Source: a virus (taxonomy: Duplodnaviria > Heunggongvirae > Uroviricota > Caudoviricetes). From it: a stretch of 19,960 nucleotides of DNA. The notes beneath the pieces are model-generated. The model saw only the letters and a program-made list of their open reading frames with translations. It made no database searches and was not told where the DNA came from. Location of the stretch: positions 1 through 19,960 of the IMG/VR virus record IMGVR_UViG_3300029337_000252; one strand, 5' to 3'. The position numbers were made by a program, and so were the translations under genes. Shown here one piece after another: positions 10,239-19,960 of this stretch; position 1 is the stretch's first letter, and the number at the start of each line of letters is the position of its first letter.

Positions 10239-11165
10239 ATGCACGCTTTAGCACCGTATCTTTTCCGCTGCTACAATCCGAACGCAGCCAAAGAACAACG
10301 TTATTCAGCACTGAGTAACATCAGAGAACATGATTTACTTGATATACTCGATGAATTTATTAAGCAGTATAATGAAGAATATATCCTTTCTGAAGAAACC
10401 AAACAAGTTTTTCGTTTTAATGAGATTACACGCGATAACAACAATCGAGAAATATATGGATGGTTCGAGTCTGGATATTACGGAACAAAGACCGACATAA
10501 TAAACATTGAAACTGGCGATGTAGACTTCGAAAAGACAAAAAACAATGCTGAAATAATTAGATATTACATACATTTTTATATTCCTAGAGATGTAAATGA
10601 AGGCATGGCGTTTTTACATACCTATAGAGGTGATGGTATAAAAACTCTTTTTATGAGATTGTTTTCAGATTATTTCAAGAGGGTTACCAACTTAGTGATT
10701 CAAATGAACCCTCTGGCGTATGATAAAGCGATTGAAAAATGGATGAATGCCATTACCAAAGAAATCAAGGTAACTAAATTCCATGGCATTACAGATGTAG
10801 CTGAACAAGCCAAAAAGCTAGGCCATAACGAGCAAGAATTAATTATCAAACCGCCTCGAAATGCAGGACTTGGAAGACTTCGAGACTATTTCTCCAGAGG
10901 CTCGGAGCAATATCAACTCGTTGAAGTCCTTAAAGAATATGGAGAAACAGTAAAAACAGTTGTTGAATTAGATAATGGCAGAAAAAGAACTTTTCATATT
11001 GGAACAACAGCAAGGGGAGCTGTATGTGAAATTTTATTTGATGAAGAACAAGTTGTTTTTTATGATGGCATGCCGGAAATAGCATCACTAAATAATTTTG
11101 TTGATGTTATTATCATGGAATATATACAGTTGTTATATCGTGGTGTTACTATAAGGAGAGCGTAA
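10239..11165 (+). CDS. Hypothetical soluble protein, 308 aa (cargo gene A, candidate sensor of a defence module)
   Basis: AAGGAGA SD 7 nt upstream; about 30% GC by eye; no Walker A, HNH, TOPRIM, TIR or other motif I can recognise. Confidence 0.8.
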   Translation: MHALAPYLFRCYNPNAAKEQRYSALSNIREHDLLDILDEFIKQYNEEYILSEETKQVFRFNEITRDNNNREIYGWFESGYYGTKTDIINIETGDVDFEKTKNNAEIIRYYIHFYIPRDVNEGMAFLHTYRGDGIKTLFMRLFSDYFKRVTNLVIQMNPLAYDKAIEKWMNAITKEIKVTKFHGITDVAEQAKKLGHNEQELIIKPPRNAGLGRLRDYFSRGSEQYQLVEVLKEYGETVKTVVELDNGRKRTFHIGTTARGAVCEILFDEEQVVFYDGMPEIASLNNFVDVIIMEYIQLLYRGVTIRRA

Positions 11166-11749
11166 TGAGTTCAAAGATAAATATATGCGAAGTTCTTATA
11201 GGCCACTTCAGAACTTTAAAAAATGCTGACACTAATAAGATCAGTTTATGGGATATATTTACATTCATAATACTACCATTTATTATTGCTGCCGCATTCT
11301 CACTCCTTGGAAGTGGTATAACAAAAGATTTAATATCATTATTAGTTAATTTCAGTGCAATACTAACAGCATTACTGCTTAGCGTTCTTGTTTTAGTATA
11401 TGATCAAGAATCAAAAATAAGACAAAGAAAAGATATTGATACATTCTATGAATCAAAGAAAGCATTACTCACTGAACTTTATTATAACATTTGTTATTCA
11501 ATTTTATGTGGAGTTTTGTTAGTCGTGTTGTGTTTTATAGTATCACTGTTTCCTGTCAATCAATCAGGATTCTTTTACGGCAAAACACATGAATATTATG
11601 TCAGCATAATAAACACAACTCTAAAATTAAATGTGTTATACTATTTTTTATGCCCACTCATAATATATGTTTGCGTACATTTAATTTTGAATATCATTAT
11701 GATTGTTAAAAGAATGCACGCACTCTTAACTCTTGATGTGAATGATTAG
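11165..11749 (+). CDS. Hypothetical 4-helix membrane protein, 194 aa (cargo gene B, candidate membrane effector)
   Basis: TAATG stop/start overlap with gene A. Four hydrophobic segments (about aa 27-51, 55-79, 104-129, 155-181); about 30% GC. Confidence 0.8.
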   Translation: MSSKINICEVLIGHFRTLKNADTNKISLWDIFTFIILPFIIAAAFSLLGSGITKDLISLLVNFSAILTALLLSVLVLVYDQESKIRQRKDIDTFYESKKALLTELYYNICYSILCGVLLVVLCFIVSLFPVNQSGFFYGKTHEYYVSIINTTLKLNVLYYFLCPLIIYVCVHLILNIIMIVKRMHALLTLDVND

Positions 11750-11803: not shown

Positions 11804-12191
11804 CTATTTAAGTTGTCTAGCAAAATCATATGGTGTAATACTTTCTTTCTTATTTCTATCTAAATAATCTGCCCACCACTGTATCATTAAACGCCTTTCG
11901 TCTAAATGCTCAGATGTATGAATATAAGCAGCACGTACATTATTACGTTCTGAGTGACTTAGCTGACGTTCAATCGCATCATCACTCCATAAGCCTGATT
12001 CCCCTAATGCTCCACGCGCCATCGTTCTAAACCCGTGCCCGCAAACTTCGGTTTTCGTGTCATAGCCCATCGCACGCAATGCGCTATTTACTGTATTTTC
12101 ACTCATAACCTTAGTTGCGTCATGATCCCCCGGAAAAAGCAGTTCTTTATCACCACTAATCTGCTTTAACTGGTTTAGCTGCGTATTTTCA
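11804..12191 (-). pseudogene. int: P4-type tyrosine integrase, 3' fragment (C-terminal about 125 aa), N-terminal part removed at the IS junction
   Basis: Carries the C-terminal catalytic box (HGFRTMARGALGE ... RQLSHSERNNVRAAYIH). The reading frame runs into the IS left end at about 12192, and the first codons of the track ORF are IS-derived. Confidence 0.85.
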
Positions 12192-12372
12192 TGAAAGGAG
12201 ATCACTCAATAACTTCCATCGAGATCGGGTAATAACATTTGAACAGATCGCTGAATAACATCGATGGAGATCACTTTTGACTCATTTTGTTATTCAGTGA
12301 TCTCCATCAATGTTATTGGAACTTCACAGGTGTGTTGATCTGTATCTTTTGCCATTCCGGTAAAGGATACCT

Positions 12373-13914
12373 ATGCCAACAGTTCCAATTTCTATGAGAA
12401 AACTTAAAGAAATTCTTAGGCTTAAATACGGTGTTGGACTCAGCCATCGACAAATTGGTCGTAGTCTTGCAATCTCCCCTTCCGTTGTATCCAGATATGC
12501 TAATCGGGCGGCTCAACTTGGCATAAAGCAGTGGCCCTTACCTACAGGATGGGATGATACAAAACTAAAACATGCGTTCCTTCAGACCCAGGTTAAGATG
12601 AAGAAGCACTCTCTGCCTGACTGGGCTACAGTACACCGGGAACTGCGTAATAAATGCGTGACGCTGCAGCTACTCTGGGAAGAATACTGTGAGCGTAATC
12701 CAGGCGGTTTTTACAGCTATAACCATTACTGCCGGATGTACCGTGAATGGCTCAAAACCACTTCACCATCAATGCGTCAGGTACATAAAGCTGGCGAAAA
12801 ACTTTTCGTTGATTACTGTGGACCTACCGTTGGCGTTACCGACCCTGAGACCGGAGAAATAAGAACTGCTCAGGTCATCGTAGCTGTTCTCGGGGCATCA
12901 AGTTACACATGGGCAGAGGCCACCTGGTCTCAGCAGCTTGAAGACTGGGTGATGAGTCATGTTCGCTGCTTCCAGTGGTTGGGTGGCGTTCCTGAACTTG
13001 TTGTTCCGGACAATCTGAAAAGCGCCACATCCAGGGCATGTAAGTATGATCCTGACGTTAACCCTACCTACCAGCAGATGCTTGAGCATTATAATGTCGC
13101 AGTTTTGCCTGCGCGGCCACGTAAACCGAAAGATAAAGCCAAAGCTGAAGTTGGCGTTCAGGTTGTTGAACGCTGGATCATGGCCCGAATCAGGCATGAG
13201 ATCTTCTACAGCCTTGCATCGCTTAATCAGCGCATTCGGGAGTTGCTGGAAAGACTGAATAACAAAATAATGCAGAAGTTGGGTTATTCACGTGCAGAAC
13301 TCTTCATCCAGCTTGATAAACCCGCACTGAAGCCTCTTCCTGAAGCCAGTTACAGTTACACCCTGGTGAAGAAAGTCAGAGTTCATGCCGATTACCACGT
13401 GGAAATCGACAAACATTACTACTCGGTTCCATGTTCGCTGTTAGGCCAGCAACTGGAAGCATGGATCTCCGGAGAACTGGTAAGACTCTTCAATCAGGGG
13501 CAGGAGGTTGCTGTGCACCCGCGCAAGCGTACTTATGGCTACAGTACCCGCAACGAGCACATGCCTGAAGCTCATCGACAGCATGCCACCTGGACGCCAG
13601 AGCGTCTTCTGGAATGGGCGGGGCACATAGGCAGTGAAACTCATAGTTATGTGCTTCATATACTGAACTCTCGTCCACATCCGGAACAAAGCTATCGCTT
13701 CTGCCTTGGACTCCTGAACCTTCATAAAAAATACAGTAAAGCCAGACTTAATGCAGCATGTGCAAGAGCTCTGAAAACAAAGGTATGGCGTCTGTCAGGT
13801 ATTAAATCGATCCTGGAAAAAGGTCTGGATAAACAACCTGTTCAGGATCCAAAACCAGATCTGTTATCCACGATGGAACACGAAAACGTACGCGGCAGTG
13901 AGTATTACCACTGA
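12373..13914 (+). CDS. istA: IS21-family transposase IstA, 513 aa
   Basis: N-terminal helix-turn-helix, large size, followed 12 nt later by an IstB-type ATPase gene. Confidence 0.9.
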   Translation: MPTVPISMRKLKEILRLKYGVGLSHRQIGRSLAISPSVVSRYANRAAQLGIKQWPLPTGWDDTKLKHAFLQTQVKMKKHSLPDWATVHRELRNKCVTLQLLWEEYCERNPGGFYSYNHYCRMYREWLKTTSPSMRQVHKAGEKLFVDYCGPTVGVTDPETGEIRTAQVIVAVLGASSYTWAEATWSQQLEDWVMSHVRCFQWLGGVPELVVPDNLKSATSRACKYDPDVNPTYQQMLEHYNVAVLPARPRKPKDKAKAEVGVQVVERWIMARIRHEIFYSLASLNQRIRELLERLNNKIMQKLGYSRAELFIQLDKPALKPLPEASYSYTLVKKVRVHADYHVEIDKHYYSVPCSLLGQQLEAWISGELVRLFNQGQEVAVHPRKRTYGYSTRNEHMPEAHRQHATWTPERLLEWAGHIGSETHSYVLHILNSRPHPEQSYRFCLGLLNLHKKYSKARLNAACARALKTKVWRLSGIKSILEKGLDKQPVQDPKPDLLSTMEHENVRGSEYYH

Positions 13915-13925
13915 TACGGGATCCA

Positions 13926-14675
13926 ATGATGAATCATCTTTACGAACAACTGACCGCACTTAAACTCACCGGCTTCCGTGATGCGCTTAAAAAGCAACTT
14001 GCTCAGCCGGGCACATACCAGGAGCTGGGCTTCGAAGAACGCCTGTCATTACTGACAGCAGAAGAACTAACCTGCCGTGAAAACAGGAAGGCAGAGCGTC
14101 TGATCAAACATGCACGGTTCAGACTTAATGCTGAGTTATCAAAGCTGGATTATCGTAACAATAGAGGGCTGGACAGGGCCTTCATCCGTTCACTCAGTCA
14201 GGGAAACTGGTTAACCCTGAAACAAAATATTTTACTGACCGGGGCCACCGGCAGCGGTAAAACGTTCCTGGCATGTGCACTTGGTCATAATGCCTGCCGA
14301 CAGGGATACAAGGTCTACTATTATCGCCTTAAAGCGCTGATGGAACAGTGCTATCAGGGGCATGCTGATGGAAGATACAGCAAACTTTTGACCAGGCTGA
14401 ATAATAGCGATCTGCTGCTTCTGGATGACTGGGGGCTGGAACCTCTCTCATCAGAACAGCGTAGCGACCTGCTGGAAATAGTGGATCTGATGTACCAACG
14501 AGGCTCAATCATCGTAGTGAGCCAGTTGCCGGTGGAAAACTGGTACAAAATGATCGGAGACTCCACACATGCGGATGCCATCCTAGATCGACTGGTTCAT
14601 GGCAGTATCAAGATCGAACTTAAAGGAGAATCAATGCGGAAAATACAATCTCCGTTGACCGAAGGAGATCAGTGA
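13926..14675 (+). CDS. istB: IS21-family helper ATPase IstB, 249 aa
   Basis: Walker A (GATGSGKTFLACALG) and Walker B (LLLLDDWG) of the DnaC/IstB AAA+ family. Confidence 0.9.
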   Translation: MMNHLYEQLTALKLTGFRDALKKQLAQPGTYQELGFEERLSLLTAEELTCRENRKAERLIKHARFRLNAELSKLDYRNNRGLDRAFIRSLSQGNWLTLKQNILLTGATGSGKTFLACALGHNACRQGYKVYYYRLKALMEQCYQGHADGRYSKLLTRLNNSDLLLLDDWGLEPLSSEQRSDLLEIVDLMYQRGSIIVVSQLPVENWYKMIGDSTHADAILDRLVHGSIKIELKGESMRKIQSPLTEGDQ

Positions 14676-14745
14676 AGGTAATTTAAAAACGGTTCTGTGA
14701 AAGTGACACGAACCGATCTCCATCGATGTTACTCACCGATCTCCT

Positions 14746-15183
14746 TCACGGTAATACGCAAAAAGTTAGCTGGATTCTTAGGCCATTAGAAATTCCAACA
14801 TCTTTAGAGGCTTTAAAACTCGTAATAATGGAATCGTCAATTTTAATTCCGTCTCGACAGATGACCGAAATAATTTGCTTCTGGTCACGCCAGCTTTCCA
14901 GAGTGTCGATGAAGTTTTCCACCAGCTTATTATCTCTTGAGATGAGGATACTACCGGATTCACCAACCACAACCACACCACTGATTGAAATAGTTCTGGG
15001 TGAACGCATTACATTATCTGTGACAGCCTGCCCTGATTGCATATTTTGAGTGGTAACCATCATAGGGCTATCAAATTCCATGTTCTCAGTAGCTGATAGT
15101 GACAAGAAATTATCTGGTTGGCCTTGTAGATGGAAGTAAACACCATCTTTGCCACTGTAACGAAGCTGATTAGTGTAAATCAT
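14746..15183 (-). CDS. Phage tail component downstream of the tape measure gene, truncated at its 3' end by the IS (145 aa as read)
   Basis: Start set at the ATG with an AAGGAGA SD (track ORF begins 7 codons earlier at TTG). Its stop codon is supplied by the last 3 nt of the IS right end. Confidence 0.5.
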
Positions 15184-15341
15184 TAAATTCTCCTTTGATT
15201 TCAAAGGCTTAGTGTATTTTAAGTATTTTTAACTAATCCTTTGATATATAAGTGTTTTCTCTGTTAAGCGTGAGCTACGTGAAAAATAATTTTTTAGTGT
15301 GGGTATTAACTTTGCTTTATTCACGTAGCATTCGACTATTA

Positions 15342-17381
15342 TCAATCATCTTCTGGGAATGATGAACTTAATAGCGTAGCTTCTGCGTATTGGTCGTAGA
15401 TATTACCGCTAAAGGTCATAAAGCTGGTTTCATCTGGTTTAATGGCAACTTCACCACCAAGTGAAACTTTCACAGGCTCCTGAATACGTTTACTCAAAGC
15501 GGAGATTTCATCTCTCAGGCTTTGGATATCTGCACTCGTTAATGCTGAATCTTGCTTAATGTTGTTTAATTCTGGATGCTGGAAGTTAGCAAGATTCATG
15601 GCAGCACTATTAAACCACCCTTTAACATCATCCATAGTGAAAGCGGGTTTAAGTCCAGACTCTTTAGCTAGCTCTGGTAATTTAGCTTGTGCTTCCATTC
15701 GTTCAGGCGTAGAAGCTAATCTCTCATAACCTGCATAGATTGCACTACCAGTTAATAGCATATTCCCAAGATTAAACCTTGATGGTTTCCCGTTCTTTTT
15801 ATTTACGTTATCTGCTGTAGTATCAGCGACCTGACCTAATCTTGTGATAGCAGTCATAAGCCCGTAAATACTTCTAGTTACACCAACAACTTTATTTACA
15901 GCAATAACACCAGCCAAGACTTTTAAACTATTAATCAAGCCAGAACCTAAAGCATCAACAACTTTCTTTTGTTCATCGGTTAAACCACGATAAGCTAATG
16001 TCACCTCATCAAAGAACGCTCTCACCCTGTAACTAATATAAGTCAGGTTATCGATACCATGTGACATATCACTCATCAAGCTACCAAGACTTTCACCTAA
16101 TGTTTTACCACTTCCATCTAAACTATTTAAAAGCGTTGTTAAGCTTCGTGTAAAATCTTGCAGACCATTTTCAGAACCTTTGAAAATATCCGTTAATGAG
16201 TTATTCCAGGTATTCTTTAAGTTCCCTAACATTGTCTGCGTAGAGTCCTGAATAGCTTTCCAGCCACCTCTTGAATTAATCTGTGCACCAAGTTCTTTAG
16301 CAAACTTAGGGAGTGCATCAGAGGCTTTAACATCACCATTTTTCATCTTATCGAAAAGCTGTTTTTCAGTCAGACCTAAAGCCTTTGCAAATGCCTGAGT
16401 AGCACCCGGTAAAGCTTCAGATAATTGCCCCTTCAACTCCTCAGACATCACCTGCCCCTTAGAAGCCATCTGCGATACTGCGGTTAATGCTCTTTGAATC
16501 TGCTCATCTGAACGCCCCATTAGACGGGCATATCCAGTTAAGTTTTTAAATAATTCCTCTGAGCCTTCAAGACCCATCGTATTCTTTGCAGATGCACCGA
16601 ATGAGGCAAACTGAGCTTGTGTTTCGGTCGTGTCCATACCCGTGACTTGAGTTAAATCCTGAATGAACTTTTTAACCTGTGTACTTTGGTCACCGAATAC
16701 GAAATCAATACTTCTTTCCGATGATGCACGCTGTAAACCAACTTCCATAATCTTCTGATAACTGGCTAATACAGCTTGCATTGAGATAAATGCACCTGCT
16801 GTTTTAACTGCTGCTGAAGACAGGTTATCAAGACTATTAGCTGCTCTGTCACCATTAATGCTGGTGGATGTATGACCTCTGGCTTTAGCAATTGCTTCTC
16901 GTACACTTGAATTTAGTTTAGCAAGGGCTTCATTAAACTTGGTGTTATCCATCTGACCAGCTTTACTACTTAATGCGTAAAACTGGCTCTTAATGTATTT
17001 CTCGACAATTGGGTTAAGACCTTTCAGTTTGGTCATACTCGCTGAATAAGCTGCTGTGATTGCTCTGCTTCCGCTAATTCGTGGTTGCCTTGATTGTCTA
17101 AGTGGCTTTAAAGTATCCTCAATTTCCGTTTTAATCTTAAACGCTTTAGTGTTTTTAAGACGCTGCTCAATCTTGGAAACAGTTTTATCGACATTTCTTT
17201 CCATGACCTTGAGAGAATCATTTAAAGGCGTAGGATTAACTCTGAATGCTTTATTTAGTCGTTTTTCAATTCTTGATGCGATTTGCATCGTTTGTTTCTC
17301 GGCTTTTTCCAAGCCTTTTAAAACTTTCTGAGAGTTAAAACTTAACTCAATCAGGAAGTCATCAACTTTAAACTGTGCCAT
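15342..17381 (-). CDS. Phage tail tape measure protein, 679 aa
   Basis: Long, helix-rich, low in aromatics; central segment (GQVMSEELKGQLSEALPGATQAFAKALGLTEKQLFDKMKNG) resembles the conserved tape-measure core region. Confidence 0.8.
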   Translation of the reverse strand: MAQFKVDDFLIELSFNSQKVLKGLEKAEKQTMQIASRIEKRLNKAFRVNPTPLNDSLKVMERNVDKTVSKIEQRLKNTKAFKIKTEIEDTLKPLRQSRQPRISGSRAITAAYSASMTKLKGLNPIVEKYIKSQFYALSSKAGQMDNTKFNEALAKLNSSVREAIAKARGHTSTSINGDRAANSLDNLSSAAVKTAGAFISMQAVLASYQKIMEVGLQRASSERSIDFVFGDQSTQVKKFIQDLTQVTGMDTTETQAQFASFGASAKNTMGLEGSEELFKNLTGYARLMGRSDEQIQRALTAVSQMASKGQVMSEELKGQLSEALPGATQAFAKALGLTEKQLFDKMKNGDVKASDALPKFAKELGAQINSRGGWKAIQDSTQTMLGNLKNTWNNSLTDIFKGSENGLQDFTRSLTTLLNSLDGSGKTLGESLGSLMSDMSHGIDNLTYISYRVRAFFDEVTLAYRGLTDEQKKVVDALGSGLINSLKVLAGVIAVNKVVGVTRSIYGLMTAITRLGQVADTTADNVNKKNGKPSRFNLGNMLLTGSAIYAGYERLASTPERMEAQAKLPELAKESGLKPAFTMDDVKGWFNSAAMNLANFQHPELNNIKQDSALTSADIQSLRDEISALSKRIQEPVKVSLGGEVAIKPDETSFMTFSGNIYDQYAEATLLSSSFPEDD

Positions 17382-17465
17382 TATTCATATTCACCTCATA
17401 CAAAAAAGGGGAGGACCAACCAATTAAGGTTAATCTCTCCCCGTATTTACCCAACCAATTCTTTT

Positions 17466-17678
17466 TTAATGTCGGACAAGATAATGTAGTTCCGTTTCAC
17501 CTATAATTTGAGCATCAGAAGGAATACGGTCAATACACCACTTTGGAATCTTGCGTGTTTTTGGTTTGTGTGAGGTGATGTAATGACGGTTATTCTTAAT
17601 TCGTAGCTTTTGTCTATTTGGTTGTAGCTGGAGTCTTTCGCAAACAGACCGAATAGTCTCTAAACGTTCTTCAAACAT
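17466..17678 (-). CDS. Hypothetical small basic protein, 70 aa
   Basis: GAGGTGA SD upstream; same strand and operon as the tail genes. Confidence 0.5.
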   Translation of the reverse strand: MFEERLETIRSVCERLQLQPNRQKLRIKNNRHYITSHKPKTRKIPKWCIDRIPSDAQIIGETELHYLVRH

Positions 17679-17701
17679 TAATCACCTCACATATTGCATA
17701 A

Positions 17702-18418
17702 TCAAACAGCCTTGCTAAATTCTCGTGGAACACTCAGAAAATCATTGAAGCTGATAATCTGTGCCAACTCTTGACGGTACTCCTTAGCCAGCGCTTGATG
17801 GTCACTAATCAGCTTAGCCAGTCTTGATTTCAGCAAATTAATCTCATTTTCTCTTGCTTTCATCAGTTTCTCTTTGGCAATTTCTTCAAGCTCAGCTTGT
17901 GATTTATCAGCAACAATTAGAGACAGTCGATGTGGCGCTCTAATGGCTCTTTCTGTACGAACAACTCTTTGACCTTCTGGTAAATCTGCAATCACTTTAC
18001 CAATCTCTACAGGGTCATACCCCCAACCGTCACGGCCTAGTCGAGAGAAATAAGCATAAGGATTGGTTTGAAGCTCCATCAAAATAGCCATTTCGTCAAT
18101 TTCGTCTTCAAGCTTGGACTGAATTTTCTCGTAAACACTTCTCATTGCTTCTTGAGAGTCTTTAATAGCTTGGAAATATCGGCGTTGTAGCTTCAACTTC
18201 AAATCAAGTTCACACCGTTCGTTCATAGAAAAATCAATTTCAACTCTTGGAATCTCGAGTGGTTCTGGTGGAATATATGGACCTTTATTTACTTCGTGTG
18301 ATTCCCGCCAAGCTCTATCAAAAGATTCACGCAAACTTAATTCGTGAATATCAAGTGCACTTGGTCTGTTCTCAACAATCATTTCGTGTTCATTACGAAT
18401 AGACATTATTTTTTTCAC
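17702..18418 (-). CDS. Hypothetical protein with C-terminal coiled-coil, 238 aa
   Basis: GAGGTGA SD 6 nt upstream; heptad-like, charged C-terminal segment (ELEEIAKEKLMKARENEINLLKSRLAKL...). No motif recognised. Confidence 0.7.
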   Translation of the reverse strand: MKKIMSIRNEHEMIVENRPSALDIHELSLRESFDRAWRESHEVNKGPYIPPEPLEIPRVEIDFSMNERCELDLKLKLQRRYFQAIKDSQEAMRSVYEKIQSKLEDEIDEMAILMELQTNPYAYFSRLGRDGWGYDPVEIGKVIADLPEGQRVVRTERAIRAPHRLSLIVADKSQAELEEIAKEKLMKARENEINLLKSRLAKLISDHQALAKEYRQELAQIISFNDFLSVPREFSKAV

Positions 18419-18978
18419 CTCATTGGTTTTTGTTTGTTTTTCAATTTATAGAAGCACACTCAGCAATCAGAGGTGAAGAGTCTGACTGAACAAGAACCTG
18501 CCAAGTGTGCTTTTAAAAACTGAAAAGCCCTAAACATAGGTGATTCGGATATTCATGGAATCATCCTTATCTGTGAAGGGCTTTGGAGGTTTGCTTATAA
18601 CGTTAACGAAGTTTCAGGAAAACTTTCTTTAAAAGCTCTGTTTAAAAACTCTTAAAGAAACGCCCTAATCATGAGTCAGGGCAAAGCTGTAAAGGATTCA
18701 ATGAATGAACAAAGATTTTTGATATGGCCTATTTAGTGTGGGCTAAATAAGCCATGACGAAAAGCATTGCACCTTTCAGAATAACTATCCCTAGATGTAG
18801 ATGGAATTGTTGAAAGAAATAAGAGAGAATTGCTCTCCCATAATTAAAATTATGCCATGCTTAAGGTTATTTGTCAACAGCTTTTTAACAGATTGGTAAC
18901 ATCAATTTTTATTTACTGTGTTACCTACCCAGCAACCAACAAATAAGCCAAGCAGCGTCCAAGCAATTATTAAACCCA

Positions 18979-19302
18979 TTAGTGAGCCCTCACAGAATCC
19001 GTCACCAAAATACTGTCGCCATACAAAATTGCTATAGCCGCCTTGAGATATTTTTCAGGGCTAACGCTGTATTTGTTCGTTTCTTCGATAACAAGCCTTT
19101 TCATGTTTGAGTCGGTAACGGGAAACATAAAACGTGGTTCACCAGTTTCAATTCCCTGAATAAAACCTTCAATTGCTTCTGAGTTTTCAGCCATTAGCTT
19201 TAGTAATTTATCAAAGTCAATTGATACACCGGAATCAGTGAAAGCCTGCACCATCGTAGCAGTGTCGCTATCAATGAAAATCTGTAATTCATATTCGTTC
19301 AT
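18979..19302 (-). CDS. Hypothetical acidic protein, 107 aa
   Basis: AGGAGA SD upstream; AT-rich phage-like context. Confidence 0.6.
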   Translation of the reverse strand: MNEYELQIFIDSDTATMVQAFTDSGVSIDFDKLLKLMAENSEAIEGFIQGIETGEPRFMFPVTDSNMKRLVIEETNKYSVSPEKYLKAAIAILYGDSILVTDSVRAH

Positions 19303-19460
19303 TTTTAAAATCTCCTTTTTTACCAGACCTCCTCAATCGCTCTGTAACGAGCTAAATAGTCTTTTTCAGGGGTAGCCTGTACAGTGGTATTACCCACCCT
19401 AAAATAGGGTAGTTTTTTTTGCGTTAGAATGCGATTGAGAGCGTCTGAGAAGCTGTTTTT

Positions 19461-19748
19461 CTAATTTCTCTTAAAGTCTCGGACTTGCATAAGATTTTTT
19501 GGTCTGGTATCGGCTCTGTTACCATTTCGATGGATGATTTGCTTATTGGATTGATAGCCATGATAAAGGAACCAGACAACATATTTCACGCAGAAAGTGT
19601 ATCGGCCTATATTAAATGTTTTGTTGCCGTAGTCGTCGGTATTTATCGTGACCGACTCTCCATCAGACCAGCACAGGGAATCACTGGATTCATCATAGGT
19701 AAGTTGTTCTGTAAAATATCGCCTAACATCTTCATGCCAAGGTTTCAT
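19461..19748 (-). CDS. Small HNH_3-type (phage homing-endonuclease-like) protein, 95 aa
   Basis: C-terminal block YHGYQSNKQIIHRNGNRADTRPKNL fits the H-x-NG-x(3)-D-x(4)-NL pattern of standalone phage HNH proteins; GAGGAGG SD upstream. Confidence 0.65.
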   Translation of the reverse strand: MKPWHEDVRRYFTEQLTYDESSDSLCWSDGESVTINTDDYGNKTFNIGRYTFCVKYVVWFLYHGYQSNKQIIHRNGNRADTRPKNLMQVRDFKRN

Positions 19749-19960
19749 AAAACCTCCTCACCCCAATAACCTAATTCAATCTTGTGACGCTCAAACCATT
19801 CCGGTTTAACTGCTGCTTTCAGTGTTTCATTTGGGCCAATGACTTTAATGAAAATATCTCTTGAGTTAAAGATGTCACCGAATCCGTTTCCTTTAATCAG
19901 GAGGTCGGAGATGTAGCGAATCATTTTATCTGTGTGGTATTCAAAGGTAACGCATAGCAT
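19745..19960 (-). CDS. Hypothetical protein, 71 aa
   Basis: ORF whose ATG coincides with the last three bases of the window; 4-nt overlap with the downstream HNH_3 gene. Confidence 0.55.
   Translation of the reverse strand: MLCVTFEYHTDKMIRYISDLLIKGNGFGDIFNSRDIFIKVIGPNETLKAAVKPEWFERHKIELGYWGEEVL

Follow-up and report, generated by a model that had tools for sequence, protein, structure and literature searches.

Origin and composition of the AT-rich block

The window, that is, the whole stretch of 19,960 nucleotides analysed here, joins a P4-like satellite to an AT-rich block with tail-type genes, and the question raised by this locus is to what kind of element the block belongs. In the block (14761–19960), seven co-oriented ORFs on the minus strand were found by ORF calls and profile searches, encoding a tape measure protein (TMP) of 679 aa, a Dit_like protein truncated by an insertion sequence (IS), an HNH_3 protein and four proteins without assigned function, and a 25-aa hydrophobic ORF (18902–18979) makes an additional eighth gene. 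The GC content of the block is 38.8%, lower than in the P4-like portion of the window (56%) and in E. coli flanks (49.5%), and an SD-type site, GAGGTGA or AGGAG, can be read in the sequence ahead of each start codon. The first-pass annotation had described seven co-oriented genes of lower GC than the satellite with SD sequences of just these types, and had placed their origin apart from that of the satellite; all of this is borne out. The join runs through an IS21-family element (12180–14760, plus strand) with istA (12373–13914), istB (13926–14675) and, at its ends, the inverted repeats TGCGTATTTTCATGAAAGGAGATC and TGCGTATTACCGTGAAGGAGATC; no target-site duplication is present in its flanks (...GTTTAGC / AAAAGTT...). 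Homology to the P4-like satellite and the IS stops at 14760, and that to a chromosomal island begins exactly at 14761. The segment 14761–19960 is the inner half of an integrative island of about 11.8 kb, severed by the IS21-family element. With its tube-initiator (Dit_like) gene cut short and no integrase end left, the island is disabled in this genome.

The intact element is an insertion of 11,761 bp flanked by 13-bp direct repeats, TCAAGGGTCATTG, with a large serine recombinase inside. In many genomes the empty site, as reconstructed, is matched contiguously at 100% identity, and 5189 of 5426 have it unsplit; the element is inserted precisely and at a specific site. At no fewer than three chromosomal sites, tonB/yciI, yecE (within the gene) and wrbA/ymdF, this gene order is kept beside serine recombinases that differ, and it is also found in Salmonella and Citrobacter. 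The TMP family is present in 478 of the 5426 genomes (about 9% of E. coli genomes), always on the chromosome. The intact layout starts with the large serine recombinase, the tube initiator, the TMP, a terminator, a 70-aa basic protein and a 234-aa coiled-coil protein, continues with a structured leader and promoter, a 25-aa peptide, a 107-aa protein and variable small genes (HNH and others), and ends with proteins of 93 and 184 aa, some 2 kb without coding sequence and cargo that varies (invertase, Dam methylase, membrane protein). Selection on the core genes is purifying (dN/dS 0.10–0.33).

This layout bears on the proposal of the first-pass annotation that the block is a remnant of a second prophage or tailocin-like element, whose tail genes would have been left by deletion. 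Matches to TMP, Dit_like and HNH_3 families are indeed usual in phage tail regions, IS insertions lie in or beside the tail genes of several copies, and such regions appear in IMG/VR, where the matches are predicted proviruses of isolate genomes, not virion DNA. A decayed phage is nevertheless highly improbable: the same 11.8-kb content, bounded by exact 13-bp repeats and carrying its own large serine recombinase, stands intact at several sites and occurs in four genera; genes for sheath, tube, hub, fibre, capsid, terminase and lysis are missing from every island copy; the remaining genes have no phage homologues, and selection is purifying. Furthermore, the closest relatives of both tail genes belong to virulent Ounavirinae, not to temperate phages.

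Two tail genes of Felix-O1-like phages

The TMP gene (15342–17381, minus strand) is intact, and the earlier assignment of its 679-aa product as a tape measure is upheld by profile matches to TMP_3 (PF20155, 6e-18), TIGR02675 (4e-14) and phrog_4036 (4e-78). The protein matches gp017 of phage Bas63 (PDB 9ndy_F) with an E-value of 1.4e-63, and its full-length alignment with the 742-aa TMP of phage VpaE1 gives 26% identity. The best-conserved part is the N terminus, with 59% identity over the first 40 columns of that alignment, and a short C-terminal motif is common to island and phage (LLSSSFPEDD vs LLSSSYPEEE in VpaE1); in Bas63, the C terminus of TMP touches the hub and the puncture apparatus (PMC12609058).

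The tail tube initiator follows (14746–15183, minus strand), annotated “phage baseplate protein.” Of its 256 codons, only about the first 141 are left in the window, in an ORF that continues for a few codons within the end of the IS, and this 5′ part matches PF21821 (3e-17) and phrog_3721 (1e-78, profile positions 2–143 of 265). A full-length initiator from another island copy (L002) matches Bas63 gp018 (PDB 9ndy_A) over residues 5–256 with an E-value of 1.2e-112. In VpaE1, the gene next after the TMP gene encodes a protein with 72% identity to this full-length initiator; the order of the two genes is the same. Felixounavirus gp017 and gp018, which are neighbours in the phage, are the orthologues of the island's TMP and tube initiator. 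Synteny with siphovirus tail modules had been proposed as a check; it is found instead with a myovirus, as TMP followed by tube initiator, and not with a siphovirus Dit module.

These two are the only phage-like genes of the island, and eight other island proteins gave no tblastn match among 50,697 phage genomes. GC contents of island and phage are near-equal (38.8 and 38.9%), and a non-coding unit of about 100 nt in some copies matches Ounavirinae genomes only (118 records). Felix-O1-like myoviruses are strictly lytic and are not known to occur as prophages.

The two genes differ in their relation to the phage. TMP identity is 28–30% between island and phage vs 43–99% between islands, while that of the initiator, 66–82% between island and phage, lies within the island–island range of 67–95%. 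The island TMP forms its own old clade, while the tube initiator tracks the phage sequence; in the latter, the N-terminal tube-like domain is 80–95% identical between island and phage, and identity falls to 33% in the last ~60 residues. Island TMPs are 679–722 aa long, 20–63 aa shorter than phage TMPs, and their dN/dS is 0.13–0.28.

Genes and control elements upstream of the tail genes

Ahead of the TMP gene lies a gene for a basic protein of 70 aa (17466–17678, minus strand; pI 10.0), whose position is kept in all island copies and which has no match in Pfam, PHROG, NCBIfam or PADLOC. The next gene (17702–18406, minus strand) encodes an acidic, island-specific protein of 234 aa counted from ATG, or 238 aa from GTG. 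Its fold is a hairpin of antiparallel coiled coil that bears a small beta tip, and the charged coiled-coil C terminus noticed earlier is supported by a helix predicted at residues 170–224 in the AlphaFold model. The remark that these two genes do not look like the G/GT chaperone pair also holds: each gene has a separate SD and ATG, stops intervene between them in all frames, and neither protein resembles the Felixounavirus chaperones. The 234-aa gene has no slippery heptamer for −1 frameshifting at its 3′ end. The 70-aa protein was also considered as a tail chaperone frameshift product and rejected, having its own SD and ATG with all upstream frames stopped.

Other small genes lie further upstream, all on the minus strand. 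The 25-aa hydrophobic ORF, MGLIIAWTLLGLFVGCWVGNTVNKN (18902–18979), has an ATG overlapping the stop codon of the 107-aa gene and is open in eight of eight islands, Citrobacter included, as 21–25 hydrophobic codons. No component of the island superfamily is more widespread than the acidic 107-aa protein (18979–19302; pI 4.4, no Pfam domain), for which E. coli, Shigella and Salmonella give 3116 clusters and whose gene has a dN/dS of 0.23–0.33. The 95-aa HNH_3 protein (19461–19748) matches PF13392 (5e-8; 32.8 bits vs a cut-off of 24.8) and phrog_99 (2e-7); the gene is a variable accessory, annotated as a 42-aa remnant in L002, missing from L011 and present elsewhere in L013 at 174 aa. The ORF for a 71-aa protein (19745–19960) is complete because its start codon coincides with the window end, and the same 216-nt CDS is annotated in four copies (L001, L002, L003 and L005).

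Between the 25-aa and 234-aa genes, there is a strong sigma-70-type promoter on the minus strand (18849–18877), TTGACA and TG-CATAAT with a 17-nt spacer and an extended −10, which matches the consensus at 11 of 12 positions and whose −35 region is invariant in all eight aligned islands. It is followed by a leader of about 420 nt (18419–18842, minus strand), predicted to be transcribed, in which the 8-island alignment gives several conserved hairpins, three of them terminator-like, including those at 18841–18819 and 18683–18661. The RNAalifold structure of the leader has 8 compensatory pairs, as against 3.1 ± 1.2 in shuffled and 0–3 in slid controls, and a family-invariant 26-nt block, GAAAGGTGCAATGCTTTTCGTCATGG, shows 0–1 mismatch across 15 island loci and is absent from the phage. 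Furthermore, an intrinsic terminator consisting of a hairpin and U6 (17402–17442, minus strand) separates the 70-aa gene from the start codon of TMP at 17381 (RNA fold −23.7 kcal/mol, z −3.4). An equivalent hairpin and U-run are found in six of the seven other folded island copies, with differing stem sequences; the L004 fragment begins inside the hairpin and has only the 3′ arm and the U-run left. Promoter, covarying leader and pre-TMP terminator together suggest a regulated design.

Such an arrangement has to be weighed against the idea that the island is an integrative element with two passenger phage genes, which would have no interaction with phages and serve an unrelated function of the host or the element. 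The lack of an assigned function for eight of ten core genes is in line with this idea. On the other hand, nothing in this family of 478 genomes is as constant as the two genes of phage origin, they stay adjacent in phage order behind the conserved promoter–leader–terminator arrangement, and an initiator following the phage sequence beside a TMP of an own old clade is hard to fit to functionless passengers; mere carriage is therefore unlikely.

A putative parasite of Felix-O1-like phages

Since it has its own versions of two tail proteins of lytic Felix-O1-like phages aboard, the island looks like a phage parasite (satellite) not described before. By analogy with the PLE of Vibrio cholerae, it may be a PLE-like satellite or hyperparasite of Felix-O1-like (Ounavirinae) phages that equips helper tails with a TMP and a tube initiator of its own, a reading to which we assign about an even chance. 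In an uninfected cell, transcription from the strong promoter would halt in the leader and at the pre-TMP terminator; upon helper infection, read-through would allow the island TMP and tube initiator to be made. The initiator would be kept phage-like to fit the hub, spacer and tube proteins of the helper, while the helper TMP would be supplanted by the shorter, divergent island TMP. The resulting chimeric tails might bring about island transfer, spoiled helper progeny, or both. Several points stand against this satellite reading. At 11.8 kb, the genome amounts to about one seventh of a helper headful of 88 kb, the high tube-initiator identity could stem from one recent capture instead of continued co-adaptation, the IMG/VR matches are predicted proviruses and not virion DNA, no tail chaperone was found where PLE has one, and the element is broken in this window. 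Neither a replication initiator nor a primase, terminase small subunit, pac mimic or capsid-remodelling protein is recognisable in the island, and the scanned island proteins without assigned function have no significant match in Pfam, PHROGs, NCBIfam or PADLOC.

The lack of recognisable replication or packaging functions would also suit a non-transferring defence island, in which TMP and tube initiator serve as dominant-negative decoys poisoning Felix-O1-like tail assembly and which spreads only as an ordinary integrative island. The links to Ounavirinae tail proteins fit defence equally, blockers of tail assembly are known from mobile elements (Tai, PMC11364771; PLE11 Rta, PMC12987554), and cargo at a variable end, here the Dam methylase and membrane protein, is typical of defence hot spots. 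However, tail-interference systems known so far are small inhibitors, not full-length structural orthologues, and no PADLOC model matches the island. The TMP is intact at 679–722 aa, with conserved N terminus and C-terminal motif and a dN/dS of about 0.2, in lineages 50% apart, and an intact TMP under such selection looks like a working structural protein, not a poison. Defence by decoys is accordingly rated as rather doubtful.

Comparison with known systems

The island genes are direct orthologues of Felixounavirus gp017/gp018 (Bas63, PDB 9ndy; PMC12609058) in the same order and adjacency, but they are borne by a bacterial integrative island without the other ~20 virion genes. The Tai of PICIs, prophages and P4-like satellites (PMC11364771) are likewise borne by mobile elements, and their presumed target is tail assembly of a helper or invader; unlike the island proteins, they are inhibitors, not structural orthologues, and have no homology to the island in PADLOC or Pfam scans.

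Putative E. coli satellites with TMP and Dit_like genes beside an integrase have been described bioinformatically for Inny, Muut and Mt1B1_P17, which are Justusliebigvirus phages (Barth et al., 2023, PMC10448857). Satellites of this type (example L010, ECONIH1) resemble the island as E. coli chromosomal islands of 10–14 kb with an invertase, about 2 kb of non-coding DNA, small genes, a gene of ~67–70 aa, TMP, Dit_like and a terminal integrase. Except for the invertase (34%), however, there is no BLAST-level similarity. They encode a RepA-like regulator as well as major capsid and decoration proteins; the position of their capsid gene is taken in the island by the 234-aa coiled-coil protein. 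In addition, they mostly use a tyrosine integrase at tRNA-Leu, and their phage links are to Stephanstirmvirinae, as against Ounavirinae for the island.

PLE, which has a serine recombinase, parasitizes the lytic myovirus ICP1 and forms chimeric tails; its TMP, TAC and BhuB share 20%, 20% and 41% identity with their ICP1 counterparts (PMC12987554). The second tail protein of the island is a tube initiator (Dit_like), not a hub protein, and the island has no recognisable tail chaperone, which PLE has, nor a RepA_N initiator, TcaP-like scaffold or nuclease effector. It is also smaller (11.8 vs ~18 kb), resides in Enterobacteriaceae, and its satellite behaviour is putative. A sequence relationship between the two is not expected. 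Both are compact islands with a large serine recombinase and a strictly lytic myovirus as target (inferred for the E. coli island), and both combine a very divergent TMP of their own (20% identity to the phage in PLE, 27–30% in the island), shorter than that of the helper (by 95 aa and by 20–63 aa), with a more phage-like protein of the baseplate core (BhuB, 41%; island initiator, 66–82%).

Window composition and the IS junction

The best-supported reading of the minus-strand block that ends the window is that it represents an IS-disabled copy of an undescribed, compact family of serine-recombinase islands, mobile elements of ~11.8 kb found in Escherichia coli and its relatives. The window DNA comes from E. 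coli, as judged by nucleotide matches, and harbors no tRNA genes. A P4-like satellite (1 to ~12179, GC 56%) is followed by an IS21-family element (12180–14760) with the inverted repeats TGCGTATTTTCATGAAAGGAGATC and TGCGTATTACCGTGAAGGAGATC, and then by the island fragment (14761 to the window end), whose GC content is 38.8%, as against 56% in the P4-like part and 49.5% in E. coli core DNA. All genes listed in the first-pass annotation are present in this block on the minus strand, and a GAGGTGA- or AGGAG-type ribosome-binding site lies ahead of each of them.

The first-pass annotation regarded the block as fused to the satellite through the IS, and indeed the IS21-family element lies between the two. 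No target-site duplication was found in the flanks of this element, and the arrangement of the P4-like satellite and the IS also occurs in other strains without the island (H66 and H67); the junction is thus a secondary, IS-mediated rearrangement, probably the product of recombination, or of a deletion, between two copies of the IS. The island copy in the window is broken: the last ~115 codons of the tube-initiator gene and the integrase end of the island have been lost to the IS. In other genomes, IS2, IS100, IS21, and IS3 are often inserted in or beside the island tail genes. Within the P4-like satellite, two ORFs of 308 and 194 amino acids (10239–11749, plus strand) lie in a stretch with a GC content of 30–36%, compared with 55–64% in the rest of the element; P4-like satellites usually carry variable defence cargo at this position.

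The island is a discrete mobile element

The boundaries of the island are evident in strain SCU-485 (locus L002), where it is an 11,761-bp insertion flanked by two copies of the 13-mer TCAAGGGTCATTG (12999–13011 and 24760–24772) in the start region of tonB. Joining the two flanks around a single copy of the 13-mer reconstructed the empty site, which many genomes contain without interruption at 100% identity; it is unsplit in 5189 of 5426. The island is therefore firmly shown to be a discrete mobile element. The 13-mer and the tonB start codon overlap, so that an integrated island does not interrupt the coding sequence of tonB but parts it from its native upstream region, which is replaced by ~90 bp of island DNA that tonB shares with the divergent integrase gene; carriers of the island may have altered tonB expression.

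The intact island begins with a large serine recombinase (Resolvase, Recombinase, and Zn_ribbon_recom domains in a domain search), followed by a 256-amino-acid “phage baseplate protein,” here called the tube initiator, and a tape measure protein (TMP). Then come genes for 70- and 234-amino-acid proteins, a ~560-bp spacer, a gene for a 107-amino-acid protein, variable small genes including an HNH gene, genes for 93- and 184-amino-acid proteins, ~2 kb without a conserved ORF, and variable cargo (a DNA invertase, a Dam methylase, and a 221-amino-acid membrane-anchored protein). This gene order is kept beside different serine recombinases at several sites: inside yecE (L004), at wrbA/ymdF (L005 and L012), and at tonB in Citrobacter (L009) and in Salmonella Montevideo (L013). 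When the TMP gene was used as query in a sensitive blastn search, 478 of 5426 complete E. coli genomes proved to carry the family, always on the chromosome; in 186 of those 478 at least 80% of the gene is covered. An integrase with att sites, a size within 7–20 kb, and an incomplete set of structural genes, all general marks of satellites, are found in the island, whose only virion-type genes are those for the TMP and the tube initiator.

Pairwise dN/dS values among island lineages are 0.10–0.21 for the baseplate protein, 0.13–0.28 for the TMP, 0.16–0.27 for the 234-amino-acid protein, and 0.23–0.33 for the 107-amino-acid protein; by this measure (0.10–0.33 overall), the island core genes are working genes. 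The earlier interpretation of the block as a remnant of a second prophage or tailocin-like element of different origin thus stands in part. Its foreign origin, the fusion through the IS, the TMP, and the lack of a usual chaperone pair all hold, while the remnant itself is contradicted by the eight other proteins without a phage match, by identical gene content with exact 13-bp repeat boundaries, and by dN/dS values of 0.1–0.3.

Tail genes and their relatives in Felix-O1-like phages

The TMP encoded in the window (15342–17381, minus strand; 679 amino acids) matches PF20155 (TMP_3; 65.6 bits against a cut-off of 41), TIGR02675 (52.7 bits against 21.35), and phrog_4036, and these profiles bear out its first assignment. 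Among solved structures it matches gp017, the TMP of the Felixounavirus Bas63 (PDB 9ndy_F, E 1.4e-63), and its best full-length matches are Felixounavirus TMPs with 26–27% identity. The neighboring tube-initiator gene (14746–15183, minus strand) is not intact, only ~141 of 256 codons being left before the IS end at 14760 interrupts it. Its fragment matches PF21821 (3e-17) and spans positions 2–143 of the 265-position Dit_like PHROG profile, the ORF being short because it is cut by the IS. The intact 256-amino-acid protein of SCU-485 matches Bas63 gp018 (9ndy_A) over residues 5–256 with an E of 1.2e-112. Profile searches likewise bear out the assignments of the Dit_like protein and of the 95-amino-acid HNH_3 protein. 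As for synteny, the TMP and tube-initiator genes also lie side by side, in island order, in the Felixounavirus VpaE1_ev108 (42688–45716); a tail-module relative does exist, and it is a Felix-O1-like lytic myovirus, not a siphovirus.

In a nucleotide search of 50,697 phage genomes, the baseplate gene alone found matches (~80–83% identity in 165 records, almost all Felixounavirus), and the other eight island proteins, searched together against the same genomes, gave no tblastn match at E ≤ 1e-3. A further tie to these phages is the GC content of the island block (38.8%), which equals the 38.9% of the phage. When nine island copies were compared with one another and with the phage, tube-initiator identity was 67–95% between islands and 66–82% between island and phage, and TMP identity was 43–99% and 28–30%, respectively. 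The phage tube initiator thus sits inside the island diversity, and the island TMPs form an old clade of their own. The island TMPs are 679, 682, 687, 706, and 722 amino acids long, compared with 742 in the phage. The N terminus of the island TMP is best kept, with 59% identity to the phage in the first 40 aligned columns and 11–55% in later columns; the last 40-column window has 12% overall, and at the extreme C terminus a pairwise alignment reveals a short common motif (LLSSSFPEDD in the island, LLSSSYPEEE in the phage). In Bas63, the tube initiator forms a hexamer that serves as adaptor between the threefold hub and the sixfold tube, the C-terminal extension of the tube initiator follows the spacer proteins, and the TMP touches the hub and puncture apparatus with its last 25 residues (PMC12609058). 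Judged from sequence and profile comparison, the island TMP and tube initiator are firmly identified as orthologues of Ounavirinae proteins, and the best-supported reading is that the island family specialises on Felix-O1-like lytic phages with tail-core proteins of its own.

Genes upstream of the TMP

The 70-amino-acid (17466–17678) and 234-amino-acid (17702–18406) genes, both on the minus strand, occupy the place where a G/GT tail chaperone pair might be sought, and the first-pass annotation, which counted 238 residues in the longer product, already doubted that they were the usual pair. That doubt was justified: a −1 frameshift signal was sought and is absent, with no X_XXY_YYZ slippery heptamer in the 3′ end of the 234-amino-acid gene, and stops close all three frames between the genes, so the pair is rejected. 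The 70-amino-acid gene starts at an ATG behind a GAGGTGA site of its own, which excludes it as a frameshift product, and neither protein resembles the Felixounavirus chaperones.

For the 70-, 234-, 107- (18979–19302) and 71-amino-acid (19745–19960) proteins of the block, searches of Pfam, PHROGs, NCBIfam, and PADLOC gave no match. Homologues of the 107-amino-acid protein, and of the 184-amino-acid protein of the intact island, are solely hypothetical proteins of Enterobacteriaceae. The 70-amino-acid protein is strongly basic (pI 10.0). The 234-amino-acid family is very small, with 40 clusters among 5.8 billion proteins and 12 matches among 1.84 billion representatives, and divergent islands have a 25%-identical homologue in the same position. 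A homologue is labelled “transposase” in RefSeq (L011, 10775–11485; L012, 11534–12244); it has no Pfam match, and the label appears to be an annotation error. The pLDDT of the AlphaFold model of the 234-amino-acid protein rose from 57 in a first run to 78.6 when divergent homologues were added. The protein is predicted to form an antiparallel coiled-coil hairpin of helices 59–114 and 170–224 with a small beta tip, the second helix agreeing with the coiled-coil C-terminus noticed at the outset. Fold searches with the model returned generic coiled coils only. Long helical external scaffold proteins are known in other satellites, Sid in P4 and TcaP in PLE, and Barth-type elements have a capsid gene where the island has this coiled-coil gene; by analogy, a scaffold-like role might be considered as a lead, not a result.

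The HNH_3 protein (19461–19748, minus strand) matches PF13392 at residues 56–89 with 32.8 bits, above the cut-off of 24.8, and retains the His/Asn core in an IIHRNGN...KNL motif, and is therefore a predicted endonuclease; a domain search for a DNA-binding domain detected none. Between the 107- and 234-amino-acid genes lies a hydrophobic 25-codon ORF, MGLIIAWTLLGLFVGCWVGNTVNKN (18902–18979, minus strand), translationally coupled to the 107-amino-acid gene via a TAATG overlap. This ORF is open in all eight islands compared, Citrobacter included, and is unannotated in the RefSeq records inspected.

Promoter, leader and terminators

A near-consensus promoter (TTGACA, 17-nt spacer, TG-CATAAT; 18877–18849, minus strand) is located between the 107- and 234-amino-acid genes and is invariant, at least in its −35 region, in eight aligned islands. 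It is followed by a ~420-nt leader (18419–18842, minus strand) upstream of the 234-amino-acid gene, which is more conserved than the flanking genes and is the most conserved sequence of the island family. For example, its 26-mer GAAAGGTGCAATGCTTTTCGTCATGG is found with 0–1 mismatch at 15 loci (E. coli, Salmonella, Citrobacter, and IMG/VR proviruses), the TMPs of which are only 48–53% identical; the 26-mer is absent from the phage. RNAalifold predicts several hairpins in the leader, three of them followed by U-runs. Among seven sequences, eight compensatory pairs were counted, compared with 3.1 ± 1.2 in shuffled and 0–3 in slid controls, a modest signal of covariation that is suggestive of RNA structure. 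Rfam has no family for the leader, for the non-coding 2 kb, or for the phage pentamer unit described below.

Furthermore, a strong intrinsic terminator is predicted between the 70-amino-acid gene and the TMP start codon (−23.7 kcal/mol, z −3.4). An equivalent hairpin and U-run precede the TMP in six of seven other copies folded, with differing stem sequences; the L004 fragment (yecE) as folded starts inside the hairpin, so that its 3′ arm and U-run alone are visible. Expression of the TMP and the tube initiator would then need read-through of the terminator, which might plausibly be triggered during infection.

Pentamer unit and invertible segment

The non-coding end of the island contains another element related to the phages, which lies outside the window. 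In L002 (22480–22690, plus strand) and also in L005, a unit of ~200 bp consists of a promoter-like sequence (TTGACG, 17-nt spacer, TATAAT), ~12 NNGGT pentamers, the hairpin GGTAGTAGCCACATTAAAAATCTACC, and a rho-independent terminator; 37 of 38 nt are identical to a Felixounavirus intergenic region. A blastn search with this end of the island hit 118 phage records, all within the unit. The match covers ~100 nt of non-coding sequence; the phages listed are Felix-O1-like (Ounavirinae), and nearly all of them lack an annotation there. In the counterpart in VpaE1_ev108 (LR597658.1; ~58640–58780 and ~59930–60260, minus strand), a promoter precedes two tandem units of like design, and two more pentamer runs are found in the neighboring intergenic region. 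Candidate identities for the unit are a non-coding RNA, an array of binding sites for a ring-shaped protein, and a G-quadruplex former.

An inverted repeat of 31 nt (L002, 21783–21813 and 23579–23609), whose arms are 97% complementary and have the palindromic core TTGGTATTGTTACCAA, flanks a ~1.8-kb segment with the gene of a small serine invertase, the pentamer unit, and a block of conserved non-coding DNA. In L001 and L005 the invertase gene is oriented oppositely to that of L002, and the segment looks like an invertible switch.

A possible satellite and its comparison with known systems

By analogy with characterized elements, the chances seem about even that the island is a satellite that assembles chimeric tails. 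A fuller version is somewhat more doubtful: that the islands are widespread, undescribed PLE-like satellites of E. coli, Shigella, Salmonella, and Citrobacter (~9% of complete E. coli genomes), which would parasitise strictly lytic Felix-O1-like (Ounavirinae) phages, form chimeric tails from their own TMP and tube initiator, and have their terminator-rich leader read through only in helper infection. The main rival is a defence-only role, in which the island would be a decoy. Profile searches recognised no replication, packaging, or capsid-size functions in the island proteins, a Pfam scan of them gave neither RepA_N nor any other informative match, and the ~2-kb non-coding region, searched for an origin or iterons, has numerous short repeats and nothing callable as an origin. 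The IMG/VR matches are provirus predictions from isolate genomes and are uninformative on packaging.

Felix-O1-like phages are widely used for biocontrol and typing of Salmonella and E. coli. If the island, present in about one in eleven genomes, interferes with these phages or is carried by them, host-range predictions and gene transfer would be affected. Likely helpers for the satellite reading, Felix O1 and the BASEL phage Bas63, are in hand, and the relevant baseplate has a cryo-EM structure. Annotators should not take a “tape measure protein” or “phage baseplate protein” for prophage debris where it lies beside a serine recombinase at tonB, yecE, or wrbA.

The literature covered, which is incomplete, contains no description of the island nor of any Ounavirinae satellite, and an earlier description is possible. 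In E. coli, 224 putative satellites with a TMP and a baseplate component have been reported (Barth et al., 2023; PMC10448857). The layout of a Barth-type element in strain ECONIH1 (L010) is strikingly similar to that of the island, and its baseplate protein is likewise Dit_like. However, the invertase is the sole sequence match (34%), there is no nucleotide similarity, and the Barth-type element carries capsid genes and links to Justusliebigvirus, whereas the island has no capsid gene. Kinship with these satellites is therefore rejected at the sequence level, and layout alone is in common.

Exploitation of a strictly lytic myovirus, with chimeric tails built on the satellite's own TMP, has been demonstrated for one satellite family only, PLE of Vibrio cholerae, which has a large serine recombinase (PMC12987554). 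The TMP, chaperone, and baseplate hub of PLE are 20%, 20%, and 41% identical to those of the helper, and PLE proteins are built into chimeric tails ~10 nm shorter (PMC12987554). Among known systems PLE is the closest to the island, in design and not by demonstrated ancestry. If an independent PLE-like design in E. coli and Salmonella is true, tail-core substitution would be a recurrent strategy, and one placed in the best genetic model hosts.
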